DNA of 64,000 nt from an uncultured delta proteobacterium (GCA_963789265.1 CAWBKB010000006.1:401393-465392), one strand, 5' to 3'; positions 29,291-53,090 are shown, counted from the first letter of the stretch. The notes: generated from the letters alone by a model not told the origin. A program made the numbers and translations.

Positions 29291-30946
29291 TCAATCGCAG
29301 CCGTATTTAGCTGCCAATTCGGGGCTTTCCTGCCAGGGCGCTTTCAGATATTTCCAGACCTGGCTGTTGACCATACGGTCAATCTCCCGGTAGAAATTCA
29401 TTGCCCCTCTGAAGCCGGCATAAGGGCCGCCGGAATCGTAGCTATGGAGCTGTTTCATGGGTATGCCCTTCTTTTGTATGGCGAATTTTTCCTTGATGCC
29501 CGCACAAAAAATGGCTGGTTTGTAAATGTCAATGAGCCGCTCCGACTCGTACTGGCTGATGTCGTCGATGACCAGGGTCTTTGCCGCCATCTCACGCATC
29601 ATGCCGTCGTAGTCCTTAAACCGGAATCCTTTCTCCTTGAGCCTCGCCAATTCCTCTTCAGTTTTGCGCGGCCGAAACTTTTCCGGATCGGGATGAACTT
29701 CCAATTCCTCGATGTTACGGCTGTCTGCATCGACCTTGAGAGTCGGCAGCACGTGGCGGCCTTCGTAGTCGTCACGGTGGGCGAATTCGTAGCCCGCGCA
29801 AATTGTCTCCATGCCGATTTCCCGAAAAAGCTCCTGGTAGTGGTGGGCTCTGGAACCACCCACGAACAGCATGGCCAGCTTCCCTTCGCAGCGAGGCCGC
29901 ACTTCATCACGAACCTTGATCACTTCCGGCATTTCTCGGGCAATGACCGCTTCGACGCGCTCGCTCAGTTCCGGATCGTCAAAATACTTGGCTATCTTGC
30001 GGAGCGATTTTGATGCCGCTTCAGCCCCGATAAAGTTGATTTTGATCCACGGGATCCCGTACTTTACCTCCATCATTTCCGCCACATAGTTAATGGAACG
30101 GTGGCACATGATGGTGTTGAGATCGGCAGTGTGTGCGTTCGAAAATTGGTCGTACGTGGAATTGCCGCTGAAGGTCGACACGACAGTGATTCCGCAGTCA
30201 TTAAGGATGCGGTCCAGTTCGAAGGCGTCGCCACCTATATTGTATTCACCGAGCAAGTTGATCTTGTATTTGCCTTCCTTGACCTTGTCATTCAGACCTA
30301 CGACGTGTGTGAAGATGCCGTTGTTGGCAATGTGGTGCCCGGCGGACTGGCTCACGCCCTTGTATCCCTCGCAACTGAACGCGAAAACATTAATCCCGAG
30401 CTTTTCTTTCATTTCTCTTGCTACCGAATGGACGTCGTCACCGATGAGTCCAACCGGGCAGGTAGCGAAGACGCTGATGGCCTTGGGTTTGAAAAGATCG
30501 TAGGCTTCCTGTATGGCCGCACGCAGTTTTTTCTCGCCTCCGAAGACGATGTCTTCTTCCTGCATGTCGGTGGAAAAGCAGTACGTCATAAAATTCTCAT
30601 CGTTCGGTCCGTTTGTTCGCGTCTGATTGCGGCGTGTCAACCAGCTATAAAAGCCGCAACCTATGGGCCCGTGCGTAATGTTGACTATGTCACGGGTTGG
30701 ACCCAGGATAACTCCCTTACAACCCGCGTAGGTGCAACCACGTTGAGTGATAATGCCGGGAATGGTGCGAGTGTTGGCACCGATTTCGGGCACATCCTGC
30801 TCTTCGCCTACTTGGTTGACGATAATTTGTTTGGCGCGCTTGCGAGCCACCTTGGTTGGAACCTTGCGCAAGAGTTCCTGCTTCACTTCCTGGGGATCAA
30901 TGGGTTCGACCCCCAAGCCGATGGTTTCATCTTTGAGTAATCTCAT
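29291..30946 (-). CDS. nifD: nitrogenase MoFe protein alpha chain
   Basis: Motifs RGCTYAG, HGPIGC, MCHRS and QLHSYD; carries the clostridial-type insertion. Confidence 0.97.
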   Translation of the reverse strand: MRLLKDETIGLGVEPIDPQEVKQELLRKVPTKVARKRAKQIIVNQVGEEQDVPEIGANTRTIPGIITQRGCTYAGCKGVILGPTRDIVNITHGPIGCGFYSWLTRRNQTRTNGPNDENFMTYCFSTDMQEEDIVFGGEKKLRAAIQEAYDLFKPKAISVFATCPVGLIGDDVHSVAREMKEKLGINVFAFSCEGYKGVSQSAGHHIANNGIFTHVVGLNDKVKEGKYKINLLGEYNIGGDAFELDRILNDCGITVVSTFSGNSTYDQFSNAHTADLNTIMCHRSINYVAEMMEVKYGIPWIKINFIGAEAASKSLRKIAKYFDDPELSERVEAVIAREMPEVIKVRDEVRPRCEGKLAMLFVGGSRAHHYQELFREIGMETICAGYEFAHRDDYEGRHVLPTLKVDADSRNIEELEVHPDPEKFRPRKTEEELARLKEKGFRFKDYDGMMREMAAKTLVIDDISQYESERLIDIYKPAIFCAGIKEKFAIQKKGIPMKQLHSYDSGGPYAGFRGAMNFYREIDRMVNSQVWKYLKAPWQESPELAAKYGCD

Positions 30947-31753: not shown

Positions 31754-32656
<903 letters not shown>

Positions 32657-34492: not shown

Positions 34493-37400
34493 TCAGAATT
34501 CCAAAAGATCGAGTCCCGTGCTGCTAATCGCAGAATTCAGATCCTCCAGATCGCGGTGAAGACCCAAGTCACTGAACATTGCTTTTGCTTTTTCTAAATA
34601 CGCCTCCGTCTCGTGCCTGACAGGCTCCGAGGATTCACACTTGACCGACCGCGTGCGCACAGCTATTTCCGCATAGGTCCTTGCAAGCTCGGGACGTGCG
34701 CCAAGGCTTTCTCCTACTCTAATCGCCTTGTGCCACCACTTCAAAGCCCTTTTTCGATCGCCGATCAACCATTTATACACACCCATGAGTCTATAGGAGT
34801 CCGTTCGATATAACGCCGCTTTCTGACATGTCTTGATCAGCATCTTTCCTGACTTTAAAGCACTTCTCCGCCATTTGCAGGATTCTTCTCTGTGGCCCCT
34901 ATTAAGAGAGTCTTCCAGGCGCAGCAGGTAGTACCTCGAACTCACTTCGATAAAAGGGTGACAACTGTATGGGAGCGGCTTTCACTTCAGATCTGATTTG
35001 GTTGGCTTGATCCAGCGATTCTCCAGCCCCCGCCGTATCTTTCATCGAGAGATGTGTCAAGGCCTTTAGAGAATACATAGTGAATATGGCTGAACGCCAA
35101 CCCTTTCTTTCGACAAGATCAATTCCACGATTCACTTCAGTGGTTGCTGCCTCCAGGTGGCGGCATTCAATGAGCAGACAAACATTGAGCAGATATTTAA
35201 AGAGGCGGCAAATATCGTTTTCATAGGTTTCGGCGATTTCACTCAGTTTTGACACCATCAATCTTGCTGCATCAAAATGGCCCTGGCAGACTTTAGGAAG
35301 TCCGTGCCAGGCATATTGGTGGCCTGCATCCCACGTTTCTCCAATTCTCAGGCCCCTGTTAACTAGACCCTCGTCATACTCGCTGATCTCGTTCCACCGC
35401 CCTGTGAGAAAAAGGTGCTGCGTGTGCAAGAGATCGTAATTAATCCATTGCTTGACATCATCAGGGGCCAGCCTGGGCTTTGCATAATCCAGGATCCTTC
35501 TGCCGACACTCAGGGAAAGACCGGTGAAGGTAAAAAGAGCACTGGAGCCGACAAAGATCCCAAGCCCGAATTTGAATTTTGTCAGATCGAGACGGACGAT
35601 TGTGTTATAGAAGAAGAAAGATTCGATGAAAAACCGCTTGGGGTCGATGACAACGAGGGCTCCGGCTCTCTTGTAAAACAGGTTTACTGCTTCAGCCTCC
35701 TTGTGTGTCGGGAGTCTTTTGAACCAGAAAGATGGAAAGTACAGGGCCAGGAGGAAGGTAATAAAACTCCATAGGAACCTGAAGCCCCTTGAAAATGCAT
35801 TCTTGGGTAACTTGCCCCAATAGTAGTTTAGAGCCTCGTCGAAATACTCTACCGCTTCAGTGTAGTATCCTCTGTTAAAGAGAGCGAGCCCGATGTTCTT
35901 TTCAAGCACGGCCACCTTTTCGGGTTCGGCACTCTCTCCTCGCAGCATTAGATAAATGCGGAGCGCTTCCTGGTAGTAGTGGAGGGCCTCATCAGATGCA
36001 GCAGACCTTGATGCCTCTTCACCGGCCTCGATCAGGCACTCTTCGGCCTTTTCCCACGCTTCAGCTCTTGAATAGTGGTATGCGAGAAGACCAAAAAACT
36101 CCTCGAGGCGGTTCACAAACAATTGTTCGATAGCGGCTCCCACCCTGGCATGAAGAGTCTTGCGTTCGGGCTTGCCGATGTTCTCGTAAATGGCTTCATG
36201 AGCCAGGTCGTGATTGAACATGTACGCGGACTCCGATGTCCGAGTGTCCTTTAGGATCAATCCCAGCCTCTCGAGGGTCGCCAGTTGTTCCGGAAGCTCA
36301 GGAGGGGATTGGACGACCGCGCGCAGAACGCGGTAGGGAAAACGGCGGCCAACGACTGCCGCAACCTTCACCACCTCCTTCAATTCCTCATCCAACAAAT
36401 CCACCCGGGCCCTGATAATGCCCTGAATGGTCCTTGGAACCTTCATCGTCTCGATCTCGGTGGTGAGACGCCACTCGTTGGACGATGAGTCTCTGGTACA
36501 GAAGGCTTTCATCAATAAGCGACCGAATGATCTCCTCGATAAAGAATGGATTGCCTTCCGCCTTATCAATGATCTTGTCGCGCAGAGCAGAGAGGTGGCT
36601 CCCATTGTTCAGGAGATTGGCAACCAGTTTCGCACTTTGAAGCGAAGACAGAGGGGCAAGACGGATTTCGTCGTATCGATCATGATACACCACCGTCAGC
36701 ATCTCGCGTAATTGAACCGCGGGGCCCTCCATCGTAGGACGGCTCACTCCAAGCATGAGAAGCGGGACGCTGTAAATCAAGGGAAGCAAGTGCTGAAGCA
36801 TTAGTGCGGATGATTCGCCCATCCACTGAATGTCCTCGAACACTAGCACCAACGGCTGCATCCGAGCGATCCTTTCAAAGAAGTGGCGTGAGGATAGCAA
36901 TACCTGCCGGCGCATGGCTTCAGCCTGCAGATGCTCGATGTGCTCGGCAAATTCCTCTCGCACGTCCAAAGAAATCATTGTGGCCAGGAAGGGGAGAATT
37001 TCAGTCGTTCCGTCTTCAAAAAGTGTCTCAACTCGGATTCGCAGTTTGCGCCGAACATCATCTTCGTTATCCTGTTCTGTAATTCCTGCGTCCGCCCAAA
37101 TAAGTTGTCGGAACAGCCCGTAGGAAACCATTTTCTCCATAGAACTGGCGCTCGCTTCCAGCCATTGAACTTGAGACCGTGGGCTCGTGCCGATTACCTG
37201 ATCGCGTAGCTCCGCGATAAGGCGTGATTTGCCTATGCCCGCTTCGCCGATGATGGAAACAAAGCGGCCTTGACCTTGTTTCAGTCCTTCTATGCGACGT
37301 CTGAGCACCCTCAACTCTGCCTTGCGACCGACGACCCAAGAACTCATCCTCCTCACAGCTATGCGGTCCGTTTGGGAAGGTCCGGACCGGGCACGCAAAA

Positions 37401-38001
37401 GGCGATAACTCAGAATACCATCGGCTTGACCATGCACTTGAATCTCACCGAGGTTCTGGAAAGCGAACAGATGGGAAGTCAGCCGGTAGGTTTCTTGCGA
37501 TACGAGAATTTCACCCTGCTTCGACGAATCCTTGAGCATTTTTGCGGTCTTCACAGCCTCACCCGCGAACACAAGCTCTTGATGCTCGCGGTTGCCGATC
37601 CGTACGACCGTCACGTTCCCTGTGTCGATTCCGAAGCTCAGGTCCAACCTGAGTTTGCACTCCGCACTGACCTCCTCCAGCAACCGTACAATCTCCAATG
37701 CCGCGCGGCAGGCGCGCTCCGCATCATCGTCATGCGTGTCCGGTATCCCGAATACCGCCATAATGCTCTCACTGGTGAACTCGGCCATAAGCCCGTCGTA
37801 GTGCTCGATAACGCGCCGAAAACGTTCGAAATATCCTTTCAGCAGAGCACCCTCGGTTTGGACGTCCACGGAGTCAACATAGACCCGGAAGTCGGGAATT
37901 GCGGCTACTATGACGGTGGCGAGCTTGCACTCTGACGGACAAACATTCTCAGGAGCATCAATGTCATCCGACGCTCGTCCTATCTTTTCACTGATGGCCA
38001 T
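34493..38001 (-). CDS. class III cyclase-like / AAA ATPase / TPR protein, +1 frameshifts at about 36495 and 34934
   Basis: MAVFG.P..H.DDAERA, GEAGIGKSRL, VFEDIQW, AEGNPFFIEE and FNHDL; three ORFs join after removing single bases. Confidence 0.82.
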
Positions 38002-38356
38002 GGAGCATTTCCACATCCGGAACCGTGCGGGATCCACGCGAAATCAGTTCTCGCGTAGTCGATCTCGGCCCCCAAACATGCTACAATCTTATTAAGAATT
38101 TTTTCTCGAACCGGCCCTTTCGATCTTGCGATGCTTCTGAGCAAAACGCCGGAGAGTCGTGCATCAGCATCTCACAGTCGAGCAAAGCCAAATGTTGACA
38201 AAATCTACTCACATCGGTGCAGTTTATGCCACAAACCACGGCCTTGCAACGGATATTTCGGCTTGACCGGGACTCACGTTTACAGGTACGATAACATTAG
38301 GCAGCATAGGAGTGAGTTATGAGAGTTCGCGCCTGCCACTTGATCGGGGGAATTGA

Positions 38357-41293
38357 ATGGGGAAAACATTACCCGGTGGAGTTGCTCCAATCAGCTCCAT
38401 ATCGACCTATGAGATCAGTAAGCTCGAATCATCCGTAGCTTGGCAATTCTATTCGTCTTGTCGCGGCCGATACAAACTTGCAATCCTCGGTGCTTTGTTG
38501 CTTGCGGCCGCACTTTGGGAGGTAGTGCCCGGTGGCCACATTCTGGCTTGGCTAGGCGCTGTTCTTGTGTCTCAGATTTCAAGTCAAGCTATGTGCTCGG
38601 CCTTTGGTAGGGCATCGGCGGCCGGCAGCTCCGAGACTTATTGGAAGTGGCTATTTGCGGCTGGCGTGGCGATCAGCGCCCTTGTGGCCGGCATTGCAGG
38701 AATCTACCTGTTCCCCGTCGGATCAATGCCCCACCAATTTGTTCTCGCGCTCTATCTGGCTTGTATAGGCTGTGTGGCAGTGATCACGTATTCCGCGTTC
38801 CTGCCATCCAGCATAATTGCCATTCTCCTGGTAATGCTTCCCTTATGCGGTAATTTCGCGAGTCAAAGATCACAATTCGGGTACACCATGGGCGCAGTGC
38901 TTTTGTTGTTCACTGTAGCATTGATTAGCGCCGCCGCCCACATGCATAGGGTCCTGATGGAAACCCTGAAACTGCGAATTGAAAAGGATGGGCTGATAGA
39001 ATCTCTGTCGCGCGAAAAGGAGAAGATTGAAGGCCTCAACGCCGAACTCGAAGCAGAAGTGCTGGAGCGAAGACTTATTGCCGAATCTCTCAGCAGAAGC
39101 GAAGATAGATACCGTGCCGTCGTACAGGGCCAAACTGAATTCGTTTGCAGGTGGCTTGCGGACTATGGCCTCTCATTCGCCAACGAGGCGTACCGACGCT
39201 ATTTGCACGCGGACCCCGATGACTTGTTAGGCCGTAGCTTCCTGGAGGTTGTGCATCCAGCCGACTTGGAACAGGTTCTTGGTTTCTTTGAATCGATTAG
39301 TCAAGGCACCGGTCCGGAGATATGTGAATACCGAGTGAACATGCCTGGAAAGGAGATCCGGTGGCTTCAATGGACCTGCCGGCCGATACTTGACAAACTG
39401 GGTCAAGTGAAAGAGTACCAGGGCGTTGGGAGGGACATCACGGCTCGAAAGAAAGCGGAAGAAGCGCTGGCGGCGTCGGAGGAGAAGTATCGGTCAATTG
39501 TGGAGAACGCCGGTGAAGGAATTGTGGTCGTCCAAGGGACCAAAGCCGGATTTGTGAATCCTAAAATACTAGCATATACCGAGTTGTCGGAAGATGTATT
39601 GAAGGCAGGTGAATTTATTGATTTCTTTCATCCTGACGACAGACAATTGTTGAAGGATGCCTGCCTAAAAGCGACCCAGGGAGAAGAGCCGCCATCAGCA
39701 GAACTCAGATTCCTGAACAAGACCGGAGACAGATCATGGTTTCAGCTCAAGGCGGTAGGTATTTCATGGGAAGGCAAACAGGGAATACTCGGATTCATCA
39801 CAGACGTCACCTGGCGCAAGGAAGCGGAACGAGCACTGCAAAAATCTCATGAAGAGCTTGAAGTAAGAGTCCGGGAACGAACAGCCGAACTGAACGAAAT
39901 GAACAAGAAGTTGCAGCTTGAGATTGCAGACAGACTCCATGCCGAGGAGTCATTACGTAACAGTGAACAACGCTTTCGGACAATATTCGAGAAAGCTCGG
40001 GACTGCATATTCGTTAAAGACATACAGCTTAGATACACTCACCTCAATCCGGCGATGCAAGCTATAATTGAAGCGGATGAATCGGATACTACAGGATTGA
40101 CCGATAGAGATCTGTACGGGGACGACCAAGCAGTTCGCCTTATGGATGAAGACATGCGGGTCCTGGTCGGCCAAGTTGTAGAAGCGGAACATACTCTCAT
40201 GCTTAAGGGGCGCGAACTTACTTTCAACTGCGTCAAGGTCCCTATGATAAATTCTTCAGGCGAGATCGTGGGGCTGTGCGGGATCGCGCGTGATGTCACC
40301 GAACGCTCGCGTACAAAGTCGCAACGACAGAGGAGTGGCTTGGACTTTGGGTCAAAGTTCATGACCAAAACTCTGAACCAAGTTCGGTTAGCCGCCAAGA
40401 GTGACAGTCTTGTCCTGTTACTCGGAGAAAGCGGCAGCGGCAAGGATTTTCTTGCAGGACATATCCATCATTTGTCTCCTCGATCCGGGGGGCCGTTTTT
40501 TGCGATAAATATGGCTGCTGTAGCTCAGGAGCTTGCTGAATCGGAACTGTTCGGTCATGAGGCAGGCTCGTTTACAGGGGCTCGAACTCGGAAACGTGGG
40601 ATGCTGGAGCTTGCCGAAGGCGGCACGCTCCTGCTGAACGAAATTGGGGAGTTATCCCTTACGCTCCAGGCAAAACTCCTGACTTTTCTAGACACGCGAT
40701 CTTTCACGCGTGTCGGCGGTGTGGCAAACATAGAGGTGGACGCCCGACTCATTGCAGCCACAAACCGTGATCTCGGGAAGGAAGTGGAAGCCGGCCGCTT
40801 TCGTCACGATCTTTATCACCGGCTCAATGTATTCTCCATACGAGTGCCGTCGCTGCGCGACCGGTTGGATGACCTTCCGTTGCTCGTTGAGACGATATTG
40901 AGCCAGTTGTGCGCCAAGTTAGGCCGGGGCGAGGTTCCTCCCATGGATGCCCGGTGCCTGCCAATGATGGTGCACTATCACTGGCCTGGTAACGTAAGAG
41001 AATTGAAAAACGTCTTGGAACGCGCCTTGATCCTCTCGGACGGCGGTAAAATAAAGCCGGAGGCCATCCGGCTCTGGGAACACCAAAACGTGAGCAAAGA
41101 ACAGGACAACTGGTTTTACGTCGTTCATTTCCCGGATCAGTATAAGAATTTGAACGATGTATGGAACAGCGTAAAGTCGGAGTTGCTGAAGGAGGCCCTC
41201 CGCCGCACGTCCGGTGTCAAGAAGGATGCTGCGAATCTCTTGGGGATTTCTGTCGATTCGTTTAAGTACCAATCCAAAACCGTCGGCGTGTGA
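38357..41293 (+). CDS. membrane-anchored multi-PAS sigma54-dependent activator
   Basis: N-terminal TM bundle, three PAS/PAC domains, GESGSGKD, ESELFGHEAGSFTGA, WPGNVREL and a Fis HTH. Confidence 0.9.
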   Translation: MGKTLPGGVAPISSISTYEISKLESSVAWQFYSSCRGRYKLAILGALLLAAALWEVVPGGHILAWLGAVLVSQISSQAMCSAFGRASAAGSSETYWKWLFAAGVAISALVAGIAGIYLFPVGSMPHQFVLALYLACIGCVAVITYSAFLPSSIIAILLVMLPLCGNFASQRSQFGYTMGAVLLLFTVALISAAAHMHRVLMETLKLRIEKDGLIESLSREKEKIEGLNAELEAEVLERRLIAESLSRSEDRYRAVVQGQTEFVCRWLADYGLSFANEAYRRYLHADPDDLLGRSFLEVVHPADLEQVLGFFESISQGTGPEICEYRVNMPGKEIRWLQWTCRPILDKLGQVKEYQGVGRDITARKKAEEALAASEEKYRSIVENAGEGIVVVQGTKAGFVNPKILAYTELSEDVLKAGEFIDFFHPDDRQLLKDACLKATQGEEPPSAELRFLNKTGDRSWFQLKAVGISWEGKQGILGFITDVTWRKEAERALQKSHEELEVRVRERTAELNEMNKKLQLEIADRLHAEESLRNSEQRFRTIFEKARDCIFVKDIQLRYTHLNPAMQAIIEADESDTTGLTDRDLYGDDQAVRLMDEDMRVLVGQVVEAEHTLMLKGRELTFNCVKVPMINSSGEIVGLCGIARDVTERSRTKSQRQRSGLDFGSKFMTKTLNQVRLAAKSDSLVLLLGESGSGKDFLAGHIHHLSPRSGGPFFAINMAAVAQELAESELFGHEAGSFTGARTRKRGMLELAEGGTLLLNEIGELSLTLQAKLLTFLDTRSFTRVGGVANIEVDARLIAATNRDLGKEVEAGRFRHDLYHRLNVFSIRVPSLRDRLDDLPLLVETILSQLCAKLGRGEVPPMDARCLPMMVHYHWPGNVRELKNVLERALILSDGGKIKPEAIRLWEHQNVSKEQDNWFYVVHFPDQYKNLNDVWNSVKSELLKEALRRTSGVKKDAANLLGISVDSFKYQSKTVGV

Positions 41294-42651: not shown

Positions 42652-43822
42652 TCAGGGAATGTCGCACACGAGTTGAGAAGGGGTGCAGTACGGAAGTATG
42701 ATGCGGACAGTTGTACCCACTCCGGGCTCTGATTCGATTTCGATTCTCCCGAGGTGCTTGTGAACCACTCTCTCCACTATGGCCAGCCCCATGCCTATAC
42801 CCTGAGAACGCGTGGAGAAGAAAGGGTCGAACATATACATCTTATCCTCATCACTGATCCCGGTCCCGTAGTCCTTCACTTCCAGTACCTGTGCCTTCAC
42901 CTATCTCGAAGATCGCGGCATCTACCGTTCCGCCGTCAGTTGAGAAACCAATGGCGTTTTCCAGGATTTGTTCGACCGCCAACCGAAACCAATACGGGTC
43001 AAACGTGACCGAGTGCTCTTCAGGTATGCGGCTATGGAACTTCAAAGTTATTTTATTCTTGAGGCCCACAGGAACCATTGCGGAGACCGTCTCACCCACC
43101 ACTTTCGAGATACTCCCTGTGACAAGGCTCATGGCAGGCAGATCACAGCACTGGCGAACTCGATCCGCCACCTTTTCCAGTTGATTCGCATGTTCAACGA
43201 TGATGCGACCGTATCGTCTCGTATCTTCGGGATTTTTGTCATCTTTCTGAATCCTGGCAGCGAATCCGCCGATAGTTACCATGGGATTTCTTATTTCGTG
43301 CGCGACCCCCATTGCCAATTTGTGTAGGCTTCTAATTTTTTCTTTGGCCGTCTTGTCCTTTTCGCAGAGCAGCTCTTTCTCTTGGCGGCGCAGGGTAAAG
43401 ATCTCTGTAATGTCTTTGAACAGTGCCACAAAGCCCATGATCGATGTCTCATGCTCCCCGAGAGCCATTAGATAAGAAGTTGTGGCGGCTAGGCGGCGCA
43501 CGGTCCCCCCTGGGTGATAGTAATCTACTTCAGTATAATTATTGATATTCTTGCCATGAATGACGTCAATAAAGATTCGATTGAAGTCATCATTCTTATC
43601 ATTCAGCAACAGCAGCATATCCAGGCCGTGCTCCATCAAATCATCAGGCGAGCAACCCAGGATTGAGCCGGTTATCCTATTTGCATAGAGCACACCGCCG
43701 TCCTGCCCCAGTACCAGAAGTGAGTCACTCATGCTGTCCAGAATGCTTCTGACTACAGGAGACTCCGTGACCCCTAGACCCATCAGAGACAGGACTGCAA
43801 GTCCTTGTTCTTGTAACTTCAA
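42652..43822 (-). CDS. PAS sensor histidine kinase, +1 frameshift at about 42888
   Basis: VAHEIRNP H-box and ENA N-box; the DYGTG, FDPFFST and GMGL boxes lie in the shifted frame. Confidence 0.88.
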
Positions 43823-44688
43823 TGTGAGTCACCAATCGTGCCGAGTATTCGAGCATGCTAACATATCGGCTAATGTTGATCAATCGTTGCCGCCGACCTA
43901 CGGATAAAAAGCCTCTGCCCTACGAAAGACAGACGACATACTTGACAAGAATTATTTCGATGTTTAGGCTAAGAGTGAATATAGGTGTCATTATGACGCC
44001 ATGAACTGAGAGTAATGAAAGCAGGTGACGAAGGAAATGTCGAAAGCTTTGTGGCGCAACTAAGTCGGAAGCTCCACAGTGAAGCTTGAGACCAAATTAG
44101 GGAACGAAAAACCGAGTGCCAGGTCAGATTGTTACAGTCGGATGCTTGGCAATGCTGCCGAATAATGTAGAGCGGGGACAGCGTTGGAAGAGAAATGATA
44201 GTAGGAACAATTGCAGACATTCGGAATGATTTCAGCGCCGGTAATGACAAGCTGGGGAGGTTTTTGAAGGCAAAAAGACTCGGTTGATCGGGCTCAAAGA
44301 AGTTTTCTTCGTGACCTTTCCGATCTTCGAGTAGACGGGCAACGGTTGTGAGAGCGAAAGTGGAAGCATGAATGCTCATGGGCTTCTTTTGAAGCAAGGC
44401 CGAAGATTAAATCCGACCCGTCTTCTCGATTCAAATTATTGTGTTGAGCGATATTGGGTTAGCACCTTTCTGATGGGTAATGAGAAGAGGTGCATGATTA
44501 AAAGGGCTGTGTATTGTTGAATACAACTTCATGTTCCTAAAGACAGAGTAGAATCGGGAGCAGCTTCGCTGTAAGCATTGCGCGCAATGACGTGAAAAAG
44601 TCGGTTCCAGATATCGAAGTGTGAAAATTATTGAGTTCTTACAGAACGTGAAGTGAACTGACGTAATACTAATTTTCTTGAGGTCTTT

Positions 44689-47600
44689 ATGAAATCTCAC
44701 GATGAGGGGAACCGGGGTTCCAACCACAGGCGGGCCATTTGTGGCATTTGTCCTGCGGGCTGTTGGGTTGATGTAGCTTACGATTCTTCAGGTAGACTGA
44801 CCCAAGTCGAAGCGGACGCTGAATCCGAATGGGGGGCTGTATGCAGGCTCGGCCGGCATTCAGCCGAGATTGTATATTCGTCGGATAGACTCCTTCATCC
44901 TTTGCGGAGGGTGGGCCCCAAGGGCACGCAAGAATTTGAGCGCATAGCGTGGGACGATGCCTTCACAATCATAGCGGACAAGCTGCAAGCCATAAAAGCG
45001 CAGGACGGTCCTGAGGCGGCAGCCATATACACAGGTCGCGGCAGCTTCGAGCTTGCCAAATGCGACGTCTTTCAACCTAAGGGTGTGGCGGTATCTTCTG
45101 CTTCCAGCTTACTTTTCCCTTTCGGATCGCCCAACACCCTGGGCGTCGGGGCCCTCTGTTATGTATCTTTCGCTATGATCGCTCCTCATGTGACCATGGG
45201 AGGAATGCTGATCAACATGTTCTCGGATATCGAGAATGCCGAGTTGATCGTCGTCTGGGGAGCTAATCCGGCAACCGACTCCCCGCCTCTGGACTTATCT
45301 CGTATCGTCAATGCCCACGGTCGCGGGGCCGAGGTTATTGTGATCGATCCTCGGCGTACAGCGACGGTGGCGCACACCGATGCTCAATGGATTCCGATTC
45401 GGCCGGGCACCGACGGCGCCCTTGCCTTGGGCCTCTGCAACGTAATCATCCAAGAAGAGCTTTACGACGAAGCCTTTGTGCGGAACTGGACTCACGGCTT
45501 CGAAGAATTTGCGAGATATGTCCAACACTTTCGGCCTGATATGGTGGAGTCCATCACGGGGGTCTCTCAGGAAACGGTCCGGAAGCTTGCCAGACGTATT
45601 GCTTCGGCACGCGGCGCCTCTCCGGTTATGTACAGCGGCCTGGAATATAGTGACAGTGGGGTGCAAGCGATCCGGGCCACCCTGGTACTTTGGGCACTGG
45701 CCGGACAGTTGGACGTCCCCGGAGGCCGATGTTTCACTGTGCAGGGCAGTCAGTTCCCGATCAACCGGCAGGGACACATTCCGAATCCTGATGTTCGCAA
45801 GGCTCTGGGTCGTGACCGCTTTCCGGTGTATAGCGCTTATCGCGGTGAATCCCACGCTATCGCCCTTCCCGAAGCAGTCTTGGAGGGGAAGCCTTACCCC
45901 ATTAAAGCCCTGATAATCGTTGGAGGATCAATCATAACCTCGTGGCCCCAGCCTGCTGTGTGGCGAAAGACACTCGACACTCTGGACTTTGTCGTGTGTG
46001 TGGACCGGTTCTTAACTGCGGATGCCGCTTATGCCGACATCGTGTTGCCGGCGGCTACCTACTATGAAATTGAATCATACATGGTCTACGGTCCGTTATT
46101 TCGCCTGCGCGAGAGGGTTATTGAACCTTTGGGCGAGGCTCGGCCGGGCTTTTTTATACTGGCGGAATTGGCGCGACGTCTCGGGTACGGCCACCTTTAT
46201 CCGCAGAACGAGGAGGAGTTGCTCCGCCACGTGCTGAACGGCTCCGGGTTTTCTCTTGAGGACGTGCGCGCGGCAGGTGGGACTGTCCGGGTTCCCGCGA
46301 CTATGATGCAGTACAAGAAGTGGGAAAAGGGCCTCCTTCGCGCTGATGGCGGCCAGGGCTTTCAGACGTCCACCGGCAAATTTGAGATCGCATCCACAAT
46401 TCTCCAGGAGCACGGCTACGACCCATTGCCCGTGTACACAGAGCCTTCGGAAGGGTCTCTCGCACAGCCGGAACTGGCCAAGAGTTTTCCTCTGGTGTTT
46501 AACTCCGGTTCACGAGTGACCACTGATTTCCGGTCACAATTTCACAGCATTCCCGGTCTGGTCAAAGATCGCCCCGAGCCTACGGTCATGATGAGCACTA
46601 CGGATGCGGCCGCCAGAAATATTCTGGACGGGGATCTTGTGGATGTGATCACTTCCCGTGGAGGGGTGACGTTCCGAGCCCAAGTCACTGACGGGATAAT
46701 GCCGGGCGTTATTGATGCGGATATGGGCGGTGGCGGACCGCTTGGGCCTCAAGCGTGGCAAGAATGCAATGTGAACGACCTGACCGATCTCAACCACTAC
46801 GATCCTATATCCGGATTTCCCGTTTACAAAGCCTTACTCTGTGAAGTCGTAAAAGTGGCAGCGGGGGAGGGCAGGCTCGTAATAGATTCACTCGAATCAA
46901 CCCAGAGTCAAATAAATTTCAAGGGAGGTGTAAAACCTTCGCCGGTGCGACGGCGCATTTACTTGGACCACAACGCCACGGCGCCGATGGATCCCGAGGT
47001 TCGCAAGCTGGTGCTTAGGCTCATGGAAGAGGTCCCCGGAAATGCATCCAGCATACATGATCCCGGTAATCGGGCCCGCTTTGAAATTGAGTCGGCTCGG
47101 CGGCGTGTTGCGCAATTGCTCAACTGCACTGCAAGGCGAGTCACATTTACCGGCGGAGGTTCCGAGGCTGACAACCTCGCGATCAAAGGCGTGGCTTTTG
47201 CTCAGCAAAGCCGGGGCAGGCACATTGTTACTTCCAGCATTGAACACCCGGCGGTCCTGGCGAGTTGTCGGTGGCTCGAGGGTCTAGGATTCGAAATCAC
47301 TTACTTGGAGGTGGACAAATCGGGACGCGTGGACCCGGCGGCTCTAAGCTCGGCGATCAGACCGGACACTATATTGGTAAGCGTCATGGCTGCGAACAAC
47401 GAAACCGGCGCCATACAGCCGGTCGGCGAACTGGCCCGAGTCGCGCAGTCGCGAGGAGTGCTCTTCCACACGGATGCTGTGCAAGCGGTAGGTAAAATCC
47501 CTGTAGATGTTCAGGAACTTGGAGTGGACTTGCTAACTCTGTCGGCCCACAAATTATACGGCCCGAAGGGGGTGGGGGTACTATACATTCGGCAAGGAGT

Positions 47601-48108
47601 GACGCTGGATTCGCTGGTTCATGGCGGCGAACAAGAGCATGGCCTGCGCGCGGGAACTGAAAACGTGGCAGGTATTGCCGGGTTGGGTAAGGCCGCCGAA
47701 CTGGCTGTGCAGCGTTTGCCAAGAATGGCTGACGTGCAGAAACTCCGAGATCGCTTGGAACGCGGCATCCGAAAACTCATCCCCGCGGCCAAGTTGAACG
47801 GGCCGAAAGAAGATCGGCTCCCCAACACGTTGAATATGACACTCCCGGAATTAAGGGGTGAGTCTGTTGTTTTGGCGATGGATCAGAAGGGGGTTGCGCT
47901 TTCATCCGGGTCTGCCTGCCGCGCAGGCTCTCCCGATCCTTCGCATGCTTTGCTCGCAATGGGTCTATCTGACGCGGACGCTCATTGTGCGCTTCGGTTT
48001 TCATTGGGCATTTGGAACACTGAGGACGAAATTGATCGGACATTACAGCTTTTGGACGAGCTAACGAGAGATGTGTCCTCAGGAATTCGATTTGTTCCGT
48101 GCCGCTGA
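44689..48108 (+). CDS. molybdopterin oxidoreductase-cysteine desulfurase fusion (metallopterin-dependent ergothioneine synthase-like)
   Basis: CGICPAGC Fe-S motif, DMSO-reductase-family motifs, then YLDHNAT, SAHKLYGPKG, SSGSAC and C-terminal VPCR; adjacent to egtD. Confidence 0.85.
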   Translation: MKSHDEGNRGSNHRRAICGICPAGCWVDVAYDSSGRLTQVEADAESEWGAVCRLGRHSAEIVYSSDRLLHPLRRVGPKGTQEFERIAWDDAFTIIADKLQAIKAQDGPEAAAIYTGRGSFELAKCDVFQPKGVAVSSASSLLFPFGSPNTLGVGALCYVSFAMIAPHVTMGGMLINMFSDIENAELIVVWGANPATDSPPLDLSRIVNAHGRGAEVIVIDPRRTATVAHTDAQWIPIRPGTDGALALGLCNVIIQEELYDEAFVRNWTHGFEEFARYVQHFRPDMVESITGVSQETVRKLARRIASARGASPVMYSGLEYSDSGVQAIRATLVLWALAGQLDVPGGRCFTVQGSQFPINRQGHIPNPDVRKALGRDRFPVYSAYRGESHAIALPEAVLEGKPYPIKALIIVGGSIITSWPQPAVWRKTLDTLDFVVCVDRFLTADAAYADIVLPAATYYEIESYMVYGPLFRLRERVIEPLGEARPGFFILAELARRLGYGHLYPQNEEELLRHVLNGSGFSLEDVRAAGGTVRVPATMMQYKKWEKGLLRADGGQGFQTSTGKFEIASTILQEHGYDPLPVYTEPSEGSLAQPELAKSFPLVFNSGSRVTTDFRSQFHSIPGLVKDRPEPTVMMSTTDAAARNILDGDLVDVITSRGGVTFRAQVTDGIMPGVIDADMGGGGPLGPQAWQECNVNDLTDLNHYDPISGFPVYKALLCEVVKVAAGEGRLVIDSLESTQSQINFKGGVKPSPVRRRIYLDHNATAPMDPEVRKLVLRLMEEVPGNASSIHDPGNRARFEIESARRRVAQLLNCTARRVTFTGGGSEADNLAIKGVAFAQQSRGRHIVTSSIEHPAVLASCRWLEGLGFEITYLEVDKSGRVDPAALSSAIRPDTILVSVMAANNETGAIQPVGELARVAQSRGVLFHTDAVQAVGKIPVDVQELGVDLLTLSAHKLYGPKGVGVLYIRQGVTLDSLVHGGEQEHGLRAGTENVAGIAGLGKAAELAVQRLPRMADVQKLRDRLERGIRKLIPAAKLNGPKEDRLPNTLNMTLPELRGESVVLAMDQKGVALSSGSACRAGSPDPSHALLAMGLSDADAHCALRFSLGIWNTEDEIDRTLQLLDELTRDVSSGIRFVPCR

Positions 48109-48128
48109 CTCAAGAGAGGGGGAGCAAA

Positions 48129-49124
48129 ATGTCTCGACTTTCGGTTGCCAAAGAAGAGAGATCTTCGGTTCACAATTCCGCGCAAGTACCGGCAGACTTG
48201 CAGATAGCGAGAGACGTCCGCCGCGGCTTAGAGGCGGAACAAAAGTTTATACCCAGTAAATACTTTTATGATGCCCGTGGATCAAGACTGTTCGAACGGA
48301 TTTGTCTGCTCCCGGAATATTACCCGACTCGAACGGAACTGTCTGTATTGCAGCGAGATGCGCGCGAACTGGTTGACGGCTTCAATCGAGGAGATTTGGT
48401 GGAATTGGGTTCCGGCTCTAACCGGAAGATCCGCATCCTATTGGACGCCATGAGTCGAGCCTGCCGTTCAACGACTCGCTATGTGCCTGTGGATATAAGT
48501 GAGTGGGCCCTTTTATCAGCGGTTACGGGCTTGATGAAACGCTACCCGGAACTGCAAGTGGAGGCCGTACTTGCAGACTTCACTCGAGACCTGCACAACA
48601 TTGCCTCTGATCGCCCCAAGATCGTTCTCTTTTTAGGCAGCACTATCGGAAACTTGGACGAAGTTGAGTGCCGCATCTTTCTAGCAGCTTTGGCCAAGAA
48701 CCTTAGAGCCGGCGATCGCTTTCTTTTGGGTCTTGATATGCTAAAACCCAGAGCTGTCTTGGAAGCCGCGTACAACGATGCCCAGCGGATAACAGCGGCC
48801 TTCAACAAGAATATTCTCCTGGTCTTGAACCGGGAGCTATCGGCCACATTCGTTCCGGATGATTTCGAACATCTGGCTTTTTTCGATCCGCATAACGAAC
48901 GAGTGGAAATGCATCTGCGAGCCAAGCGTCGGCTCATCGTCCGAATTCAAGATCTGCGGTTGTCCGTGACTCTGGAAAGAGGAGAGACCTTACGTACAGA
49001 AATATGCCGCAAGTTTAGCCGTTCAACTGCGGGAAAGATGGTAGAAGAGGCCGGTATGAGTATCGCGCGATGGTATTCCGACCCCAAAGATTGGTTTTCG
49101 GTCGCTGAGGTGGTTTTGCGGTGA
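48129..49124 (+). CDS. egtD: L-histidine N-alpha-methyltransferase
   Basis: Motifs PSKYFYDARGSRLFERIC.LPEYYPTRTE, ELGSG, FLGSTIGN and AAYND. Confidence 0.92.
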   Translation: MSRLSVAKEERSSVHNSAQVPADLQIARDVRRGLEAEQKFIPSKYFYDARGSRLFERICLLPEYYPTRTELSVLQRDARELVDGFNRGDLVELGSGSNRKIRILLDAMSRACRSTTRYVPVDISEWALLSAVTGLMKRYPELQVEAVLADFTRDLHNIASDRPKIVLFLGSTIGNLDEVECRIFLAALAKNLRAGDRFLLGLDMLKPRAVLEAAYNDAQRITAAFNKNILLVLNRELSATFVPDDFEHLAFFDPHNERVEMHLRAKRRLIVRIQDLRLSVTLERGETLRTEICRKFSRSTAGKMVEEAGMSIARWYSDPKDWFSVAEVVLR

Positions 49125-49151
49125 TAAGCGAGCCTTACAAAAGCTCGGATT

Positions 49152-49315
49152 TATACCGATTCGGTTTCAAGCAAATGATATTGATTCCCTGGTAAATTAT
49201 AAATACAGCACGGATCCGACAAAGCCTCCCGCGTCCCGCGGGAAGCACCGTCATGGTGCCAGGTCAGTGTAGTTCGCTATTGACCGGCTTTAACTTGTTT
49301 GAGAGCCAACAAGTA
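49152..49315 (+). repeat. dispersed repeat family C (MITE-like), copy 2
   Basis: Similar to 32850-33012; imperfect terminal inverted repeats around ttcaagcaa/ttgtttga. Confidence 0.65.
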
Positions 49316-50539
49316 TTACATCTGCTCGGCAACTGCGTACATTTTTCCGTCATTGGAGCCGAAGTATACAATCCCGCTGGCCACCGCAGGAGACGATGAC
49401 ACCGGGCCTCCTGTCTCGAAACTCCACCGAAGGTCGCCGGTTTCGGCTTTCAAAGAATAAAGGTGATGGTCGGAACTGCCAAAATAGACGGCCCCATGAG
49501 AAAACGCGGGAGAAGAGAATATCGAGTCTCGTGTCCTGAATCTCCATAGTTCTCTACCTGTACTGGTTTCCAGAGCGTAAAGCTGTCCGTCAGCGCTCCC
49601 GAAATATACTGACGTGCCAGCCACCACAGGGGAGGAATATACGGCATTTCCCGTTTTGAAGCGCCATCGCTCTTGCCGTGTCCCTATGTCGACCGCATAA
49701 AGGTTGGAATCGTTGCTTCCGAATAGGACCAGTCCATTGGACACAATGGGAGATGAATCAACGGAATCTCCGGCGGTGAACCTCCAAATCTCCTGACCGG
49801 TTTGGGAATCTACAACGTAAATGTCTCCTCCGTGGGTTCCGAAAAAGACGACACCATCTGCCACGGTTGGCGCAGACTCAACCCAATTGAACGCCAGACC
49901 CTGGCTCTTGAATTTCCACTTCAGCCGCCCCTGGAGCGCGTCAACTGCGTACAGAATTCCATCCGTGCTCCCGATATACACTGTCCCCTCGGAAATTACC
50001 GGCGAAGCCCAGACCTCCTGGCCGGTCTTGAATCTCCAAATTTCTTTGCCGGTCTCCGTGTTGACGGCATAGAGGTGGTGATCCCAACTCCCCACGTAAA
50101 CCTTTCTGTCCCACACAACAGGAGACGATCTAATCGCGTCGGGCGTCCAGAAAATCCACTTGGAACGGCCGGTTCTCAGGTCTAAGCAGTAAAGGTTCCC
50201 GTCCCAACTGCCGAAATAGACTGCTGTACCCCACAACGCAGGTGAAGAGAACACCCATCCGCCGGTTTTAAAGGCCCATTTGAGTCTGCTACGGACAGGA
50301 CCATCCGCGATTTCAAGAGGAAATTGGTCAATCAGAAGTTCCACGGTCGTTTCAAGCGTACTAAGCCGCCGGTCTATTTCCTCTTGATCGACGATCTCTG
50401 CTTCCAGCAGCTTCTTGTAAAGACTAATGAGGCCATTGGGAGAAAGTCTGTACTTTAGCATCATGTCGGAGTCACTCAAGCCCGATCTTATGTCTTCGGC
50501 AGCCTTCTCCGCACTGATTTTCAATTTGCGTTTATTCAC
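49316..50539 (-). CDS. PQQ-like beta-propeller repeat protein
   Basis: Eight repeats of W.F.T...V.SSP.V....VYFGS.D..LYA. Confidence 0.9.
   Translation of the reverse strand: MNKRKLKISAEKAAEDIRSGLSDSDMMLKYRLSPNGLISLYKKLLEAEIVDQEEIDRRLSTLETTVELLIDQFPLEIADGPVRSRLKWAFKTGGWVFSSPALWGTAVYFGSWDGNLYCLDLRTGRSKWIFWTPDAIRSSPVVWDRKVYVGSWDHHLYAVNTETGKEIWRFKTGQEVWASPVISEGTVYIGSTDGILYAVDALQGRLKWKFKSQGLAFNWVESAPTVADGVVFFGTHGGDIYVVDSQTGQEIWRFTAGDSVDSSPIVSNGLVLFGSNDSNLYAVDIGTRQERWRFKTGNAVYSSPVVAGTSVYFGSADGQLYALETSTGRELWRFRTRDSIFSSPAFSHGAVYFGSSDHHLYSLKAETGDLRWSFETGGPVSSSPAVASGIVYFGSNDGKMYAVAEQM

Positions 50540-51866: not shown

Positions 51867-53090
<1,224 letters not shown>

Follow-up and report, generated by a model that had tools for sequence, protein, structure and literature searches.

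A probable metallopterin-dependent ergothioneine synthase operon in an uncultured delta proteobacterium

The window analyzed here, a stretch of 64,000 nucleotides from an uncultured delta proteobacterium (GCA_963789265.1, CAWBKB010000006.1:401393-465392), contains at positions 44689..49124 a long gene, in which a metallopterin enzyme is fused to a cysteine desulfurase, followed by egtD on the same strand. The question raised by this locus is whether the fused protein is a metallopterin-dependent ergothioneine synthase (MES), as had been proposed in an initial annotation made from the sequence alone, or a desulfurase attached to a metallopterin enzyme of some other role. MES, as described by Beliaeva & Seebeck (JACS Au 2022, PMC9516567), joins a bis-molybdopterin guanine dinucleotide (bis-MGD) module, related to acetylene hydratase, to a functional cysteine desulfurase. 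Judging from the sequence, we consider it highly probable that the two genes form an operon for making the antioxidant ergothioneine without oxygen, and that they belong to an anaerobic bacterium, whose nearest relatives are metagenome-assembled genomes (MAGs) of Desulfomonilaceae.

The fused gene, its Caldithrix abyssi counterpart and egtD

The MES gene occupies positions 44689..48108 on the plus strand and encodes 1139 amino acids plus a stop from an ATG start, with no internal stops on translation (six-frame list of open reading frames, ORFs). A GAGG ribosome-binding site, read from the sequence, lies at 44680..44683 on the same strand, 5 nt before the ATG. The N-terminal part, residues 1-730 (44689..46878, plus strand), is the predicted bis-MGD (Mo/W-pterin) module, with matches to Molybdopterin (PF00384, residues 67-496, 2.1e-45) and Molydop_binding (PF01568, residues 604-715, 2.3e-19). 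It is followed by an inter-domain linker, residues 731-753 (46879..46947, plus strand), and by the C-terminal cysteine desulfurase module dependent on pyridoxal phosphate (PLP), residues 754-1139 (46948..48105, plus strand), which matches Aminotran_5 (PF00266, residues 757-1117, 6.8e-79). The order of PF00384, PF01568 and PF00266 on one polypeptide is the architecture that defines MES, and both the ORF and the order of the Pfam matches confirm the earlier description of a single 1139-aa frame, joining a domain of the dimethyl sulfoxide (DMSO) reductase family to a desulfurase.

As the reference, MES from Caldithrix abyssi (CaMES), we used a 1136-aa ORF (L049:34-3444) of the C. abyssi assembly, taken from a scan with one genome per prokaryotic species. 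Its numbering coincides with the published one, including Cys14/17/21/48 and the C-terminal ...IPCR, and it agrees with the construct printed in the supplement of PMC9516567 wherever the two were compared by eye. Compared with this ORF, the window protein shows 68% identity (774/1130), 82% positives and a single one-residue gap, so that the similarity, whose level had been set as a test of the assignment, is not low. Given the E-values and the 68% identity to a characterized enzyme, the sequence match is far beyond chance. The two proteins are alike in their two-module architecture, length (1136 vs 1139 aa), pairing with EgtD and all key residues, and differ in host lineage.

All motifs named in the initial annotation (CGICPAGC, GALCY, SAHK, SGSAC and VPCR) are present, and their functional residues could be mapped, all on the plus strand, onto CaMES. 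In particular, the candidate Fe4S4 cysteines C18, C21, C25 and C52 (44740-44844; CGICPAGC at residues 18-25) align with C14, C17, C21 and C48 of CaMES, and the candidate metal ligand Cys157 (45157-45159; GALCY, residues 154-158) aligns with Cys153; in CaMES these residues have been proposed as holders of the cluster and as the metal ligand, respectively (PMC9516567). In the desulfurase module, the PLP lysine Lys955 (47551-47553; SAHK, residues 952-955) aligns with K952, the loop cysteine Cys1077 (47917-47919; SGSAC, residues 1073-1077) with C1074, Cys1100 (47986-47988) with C1097, and the penultimate residue Cys1138 (48100-48102; VPCR, residues 1136-1139) with C1135. According to PMC9516567, each of the CaMES substitutions K952A, C1074S, C1135S and C153S yields approximately 2000-fold less ergothioneine in E. 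coli, and C1097S lowers it only two-fold; sulfur transfer must be intramolecular, and four MES homologues from different phyla yielded ergothioneine in E. coli (Table 1 there). The earlier equation of the window architecture with the C. abyssi enzyme thus stands on 68% identity, on all residues defined by mutagenesis and on the adjacent EgtD. By homology, we infer that the window MES would make ergothioneine as CaMES does, with a similar relay order and metal chemistry.

The stop codon of MES ends at 48108, and the spacer of 20 nt (48109-48128) before egtD, which ends at 49124, is exactly as had been reported. The egtD gene (48129..49124, plus strand) encodes a putative L-histidine N-alpha-methyltransferase of 331 aa from the ATG, and a purine-rich ribosome-binding site, GAGAGGGGGAG, could be read from the sequence at 48114-48124 (plus strand). 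In the ORF list the egtD frame opens at an upstream GTG, 48099 (48099..49124), overlapping the end of MES; we take the ATG at 48129 as the likely start, because the protein translated from it is matched by its closest relatives from residue 1 onward. The protein scores 354.4 bits against the EgtD equivalog model TIGR03438 (cut-off 290.9) and matches PF10017 (2.4e-106), and its best solved relative is Mycobacterium smegmatis EgtD (4pim, 4.2e-73). The substrate contacts of the M. smegmatis enzyme (Phe47, Ile50, Tyr56, Tyr206, Thr213, Phe216, Met252 and Glu282; Figure S1 of PMC9516567) are identical in the window EgtD in 8/8 positions, according to a manual count along the HMMER alignment with 4pim, where the chain index equals the residue number plus 2. 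Histidine trimethylation by an EgtD-family enzyme is the first step also in the aerobic EgtB/EgtD route and in the rhodanese-type anaerobic EanA/EanB route, whereas the enzymes forming the C-S bond there, EgtB and EanB, are unrelated to MES.

The same residues bear on the possibility that the window protein, being a member of the MES family, has another product or works in another direction, making selenoneine from selenocysteine, sulfurising another heterocycle, or exchanging or salvaging sulfur between ergothioneine and trimethylhistidine (TMH). Class-V desulfurases often accept selenocysteine, which would suit the selenoneine variant. Moreover, the K952A variant of CaMES transfers sulfur between ergothioneine and TMH reversibly, and sulfuration of other heterocycles by related Mo enzymes has been put forward as a speculation (PMC9516567). 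Still, MES is translationally adjacent to the genome's only EgtD, in which all histidine/TMH contacts are kept, and a switch of substrate is unlikely in a protein this close to CaMES that retains every functional residue; we regard another product or direction as improbable.

Distribution, genome inventory and rival assignments

Related loci were taken as the best 80 of 273 stretches, equal to 79 distinct loci, from a collection in which each species is represented by one genome. MES relatives in these 79 loci are all at least 61% identical to the window protein and come from many bacterial phyla and some archaea. In 53 of the 79 loci egtD adjoins MES on the same strand, being downstream, as in the window, in 32 of them and upstream in 21; among the 26 loci with no adjacent egtD, one or both flanks of MES are shorter than 1500 nt in 20, while in the other six both flanks reach 1500 nt. 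Adjacency of MES and egtD is thus common, not universal. The C. abyssi locus differs from the window in this respect, as it has no egtD within 5 kb downstream of MES, while the sequence upstream of MES spans just 33 nt. The MES family looks much larger than the list of about 80 genomes from 2022 (PMC9516567).

The two gene orders were also compared in terms of protein similarity. The median identity to the window EgtD is 52.6% in the 32 downstream loci vs 37.5% in the 21 upstream loci, while the identity of MES is about 67% in both groups. By these sequence comparisons, MES seems to be paired with two rather divergent EgtD lineages.

The nearest relatives of the window MES, 83-86% identical, come from MAGs of Desulfomonilaceae and from MAGs labelled "delta proteobacterium". 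MAG proteins labelled Desulfomonile tiedjei or Desulfomonilaceae are 72-75% identical to it over 99% of the length, D. tiedjei apparently belonging to the same family of organisms as the window host. MES of D. tiedjei DSM 6799 (UniProt I4C6F5) is a row in Table S1 of PMC9516567. We found no literature linking ergothioneine with Desulfomonile, and no later mechanistic or structural paper on MES among the matches listed.

The host assembly comprises 6.06 Mb in 9 contigs, with a completeness of 95.6%, and contains one match to egtD and one full-length MES. The initial annotation had claimed that no egtB or eanB is present in the window. For EgtB this holds and extends to the whole assembly, where the best match reaches 80 bits vs the cut-off of 360; for EanB the support is indirect, as it was checked through the eight rhodanese matches of the genome, without an EanB profile or sequence, and none of them adjoins egtD. 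Two of these matches lie in long frames, and both belong to other proteins, one being a fusion of rhodanese with an ICMT/PEMT domain, which has no EanB match in PDB, and the other a 122-aa rhodanese before a DsbD-thioredoxin protein; the other six lie in frames of 100-303 aa. The fusion protein (L095:1906-3162, 418 aa) is encoded outside the window on contig C6, and its second domain is a membrane methyltransferase of the PEMT/ICMT type.

The genome appears, from its gene content, to have the capacity for the Mo/W-pterin cofactor, with MoaA at 347 bits (cut-off 284) and two strong matches to MobA-like NTP_transf_3. It also contains several paralogues of the DMSO reductase family, at most 36% identical to the N-terminal module of MES, and four standalone desulfurase genes, 43-47% identical to the C-terminal module, which could do the housekeeping.

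Several points weigh against an ergothioneine operon. In six of the 79 loci no egtD lies near MES even with flanks of 1500 nt or more on either side, and the absence of EanB from the assembly is supported indirectly, through rhodanese matches only. Moreover, in PMC9516567 full-length MES was never purified, the activity data being in vivo, from E. coli, and the metal-centred chemistry is termed there a "tentative proposal".

Another reading of the fused gene is that of a housekeeping IscS or NifS attached to a DMSO reductase-family enzyme with a different role, such as reduction of polysulfide or thiosulfate, hydration of acetylene, or sulfuration of nothing but its own cofactor. Comparison with NCBIfam models is relevant here. 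The only desulfurase model passed by the protein is the broad IscS-subfamily NF002806 (322.9 vs 304), which favours the housekeeping assignment, as do the nitrogenase genes some 12-15 kb upstream of the operon and the fact that a PhsA-type enzyme and acetylene hydratase are the best solved relatives of the N-terminal module. The best NCBIfam match, NifS (TIGR03402, 486.1 bits), is under its cut-off of 530.75, the IscS equivalogs are missed (TIGR02006, 371.5 vs 643.2; NF010611, 379.6 vs 548), and the cut-offs of the PhsA and Fdh equivalogs are also missed by wide margins. The term "IscS-type", applied earlier to the desulfurase, is a loose one, given that the best match is NifS, below its cut-off, and that NF002806 alone is passed. 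Three points speak against plain IscS or NifS: the scores fall short of the equivalog cut-offs, separate desulfurases are present in the genome, and egtD is linked to MES in the majority of loci. In addition, the fusion is 36% identical to the nearest DMSO reductase-family paralogue of the genome vs 68% to CaMES.

For the N-terminal module the best solved relative is tungsten acetylene hydratase (2e7z, 6.9e-75 by sequence), which shares the N-terminal four-Cys cluster motif and whose metal-ligating Cys, in "MYMCIGN", aligns with Cys157 of MES; on the other hand, its identity to the module is about 27%, and it has no desulfurase module. Pro22 of MES aligns with the Asp of "CQSCDINC" in acetylene hydratase, next to the second cluster Cys, and this Asp is the catalytic residue there; acetylene hydration is disfavoured because of this replacement. 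The C-terminal module yields IscS/Nfs1/NifS-like matches in PDB (1e-101 to 1e-83). The solved IscS, NifS and Nfs1 (1p3w, 1ecx, 5wkp) are 40-44% identical to it, with a common fold, PLP lysine and mobile-loop cysteine, whereas the MES module, unlike them, is fused to a Mo/W enzyme and has the extra conserved Cys1100 and the C-terminal ...PCR tail. Altogether, we consider a housekeeping desulfurase in such a fusion very improbable.

Conserved residues and the proposed sulfur relay

Conservation of the functional residues was analyzed in two sets. The first one consists of the 120 best database relatives (68-92% identical), chosen without the use of any motif. In this set C52, C125, C157, K955, C1077 and C1138 are found in 120/120 sequences and C1100 in 118/120, while C18, C21 and C25 are found in 108/120, the remaining 12 having alignment gaps at the N-terminus. 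The second set consists of 60 sequences, namely the window protein and 59 ORFs of full length drawn from the 79 GTDB loci. C18, C21, C25, C52, C125, C157, K955 and C1077 are conserved there in 60/60, C1138 in 59/60, and C1100 in 57/60, and since this set was picked by two Cys motifs, the result is partly circular for C18, C21, C25 and C1077.

In 66 loci the open frame was 1000 aa or longer, and the seven frames removed by the Cys-motif filter were inspected one by one. Two of them are complete and carry every residue, having been missed by the pattern due to the variant "AGSAC"; in three nothing but the N-terminus is missing; another is an adjacent gene, MES in that locus being cut by the contig end; and one leaves the reference frame near the C-terminus. 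Among the 120 relatives and the frames of the GTDB loci we saw no complete MES homologue in which an essential residue is absent. At one locus, on a Zixiibacteriota chromosome (L058:4974-10028), the MES frame extends to 1685 aa, while the tblastn match ends at residue 1084; this long frame, a frameshift or a further fusion, was excluded from the alignment used for structure prediction (alignment A1).

A model of the window MES was built with AlphaFold2 on alignment A1, which contains 57 sequences. The domains are predicted confidently, with a mean predicted local distance difference test (pLDDT) score of 83.5 and a predicted template modelling score (pTM) of 0.80, and the model matches the fold of 2e7z with a template modelling (TM) score of 0.82 on target and those of the desulfurases with TM scores of 0.89-0.96 on target. 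The segments with pLDDT below 50 are residues 154-166 (the metal-ligand loop), 731-753 (the linker, which is also weakly conserved in alignment A1), 1076-1081 (the Cys1077 loop) and 1129-1139 (the Cys1138 tail). In the two loops and the tail, such low confidence is compatible with mobile sulfur-carrying elements, though it is no proof of them.

By analogy with CaMES, the pathway would proceed as follows. EgtD would trimethylate histidine to TMH, and the PLP domain of MES, with Lys955, would desulfurise L-cysteine, leaving a persulfide on the loop Cys1077. The persulfide would then be handed over within the polypeptide to Cys1138, in the flexible tail at the C-terminus, and from there to the Mo/W centre of the bis-MGD module, presumably ligated by Cys157, with the Fe4S4 cluster on C18, C21, C25 and C52. 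Finally, a metal-sulfido species would sulfurise C2 of the TMH imidazole, yielding ergothioneine. Binding of bis-MGD is predicted from the sequence, and the metal may be Mo or W. The relay of persulfide from the terminal cysteine to the metal site, suggested also in the initial annotation, is the published model, backed by the C1135S variant (PMC9516567), and by homology it is probably inherited by the window MES.

Moreover, several conserved positions do not belong to the published relay. In Cys125-Asp126 of the metallopterin module (45061-45066, plus strand), Cys125 equals the cysteines established by mutagenesis in its conservation, and position 126 is Asp in 116/120 of the best database relatives and Glu in the other four; in acetylene hydratase 2e7z this pair aligns with Thr-Glu. 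Cys718 (46840-46842, plus strand) and Cys860 (47266-47268, plus strand) are each present in 118/120. The counterparts of these cysteines in CaMES numbering, Cys121, Cys714 and Cys857, are not mentioned in the main text of PMC9516567, and the alignment in Figure S2 of its supplement may mark them. It is conceivable, albeit rather doubtful, that the sulfur relay has one extra station, where the Cys1138 tail would hand its persulfide to Cys125 at the entrance to the active site; or else Cys125, together with Asp126, would supply the general base that has been proposed for TMH activation.

Surroundings of the operon and annotation of the family

The genes flanking the operon are, by their predicted functions, unrelated to the ergothioneine pathway. 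Upstream there are a PAS/sigma-54 activator (38357-41293) and a HisKA protein (42851-43822, minus strand), and downstream a PQQ-like beta-propeller protein (49316-50539, minus strand) and an IS110-family transposase (51867-52808, minus strand; PF01548 and PF02371), the latter about 2.7 kb from egtD. No riboswitch or other RNA element was found in 43800-49400 by Rfam matches at E <= 1. The number of promoter-like sites, 4 vs 3.7 expected, includes no sigma-70-like promoter on the plus strand upstream of MES, and among the terminator-like sites, 10 vs 5.9 expected, none is convincingly placed after egtD.

Such surroundings could suggest that the operon is intact in sequence and yet silent or non-functional, for instance a recently acquired cassette beside the IS110 transposase, given the unrelated flanking genes, the nearby transposase and the lack of a sigma-70-like promoter in the scan. 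Observations in related genomes bear on this suggestion in both ways. In a survey of 40 relatives of the window genome, with MES called at E <= 1e-150, it was found in 15/24 genomes of the same family and 4/6 of the same genus, at 70-86% identity, and in 4/16 genomes of a second family. In the same genus, MES is split into two frames in two genomes (G002:C44:148391-151805 and G004:C34:34513-37915) and contains four in-frame stops in another one (G006:C14:697809-701126), which is in line with loss of function; these broken frames may be assembly errors or pseudogenes, the stops possibly being assembly errors. The occurrence of MES in the family and genus fits vertical retention, however, and in the window both frames are open and preceded by good ribosome-binding sites. 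A silent or non-functional cassette is, in our view, extremely improbable, and the two genes are best read as an operon for ergothioneine biosynthesis.

Further upstream in the window there are genes for a NifD/K-type nitrogenase component 1 protein (29291-30946, minus strand; PF00148, 1.1e-100) and NifH (31754-32641, minus strand; PF00142, 3e-126). Between these and the PAS/sigma-54 activator, an ORF for an adenylate/guanylate cyclase with AAA_16 (549 aa) and a 567-aa ORF with no Pfam match overlap by 218 nt on the same strand (34902-36605 and 36388-38037, minus strand); a frameshift or an assembly error may have divided a single long signalling gene into this pair.

The expectation that automated annotation would call MES only IscS is borne out, in the sense of IscS or NifS, by the names of the 120 best database relatives, which are "IscS subfamily cysteine desulfurase", "cysteine desulfurase NifS" and "aminotransferase class V-fold PLP-dependent enzyme", while "ergothioneine" occurs in none of the 120 names. 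A persistent annotation error is thus documented, MES relatives being labelled as plain cysteine desulfurases.

The window locus is a further copy of the known MES family and brings nothing mechanistically new. Its meaning is in the distribution of the pathway, since it would extend the known hosts of the third route to ergothioneine, the one independent of oxygen, by a further anaerobe, and such an anaerobic host would support the view that ergothioneine has roles unrelated to oxygen stress.

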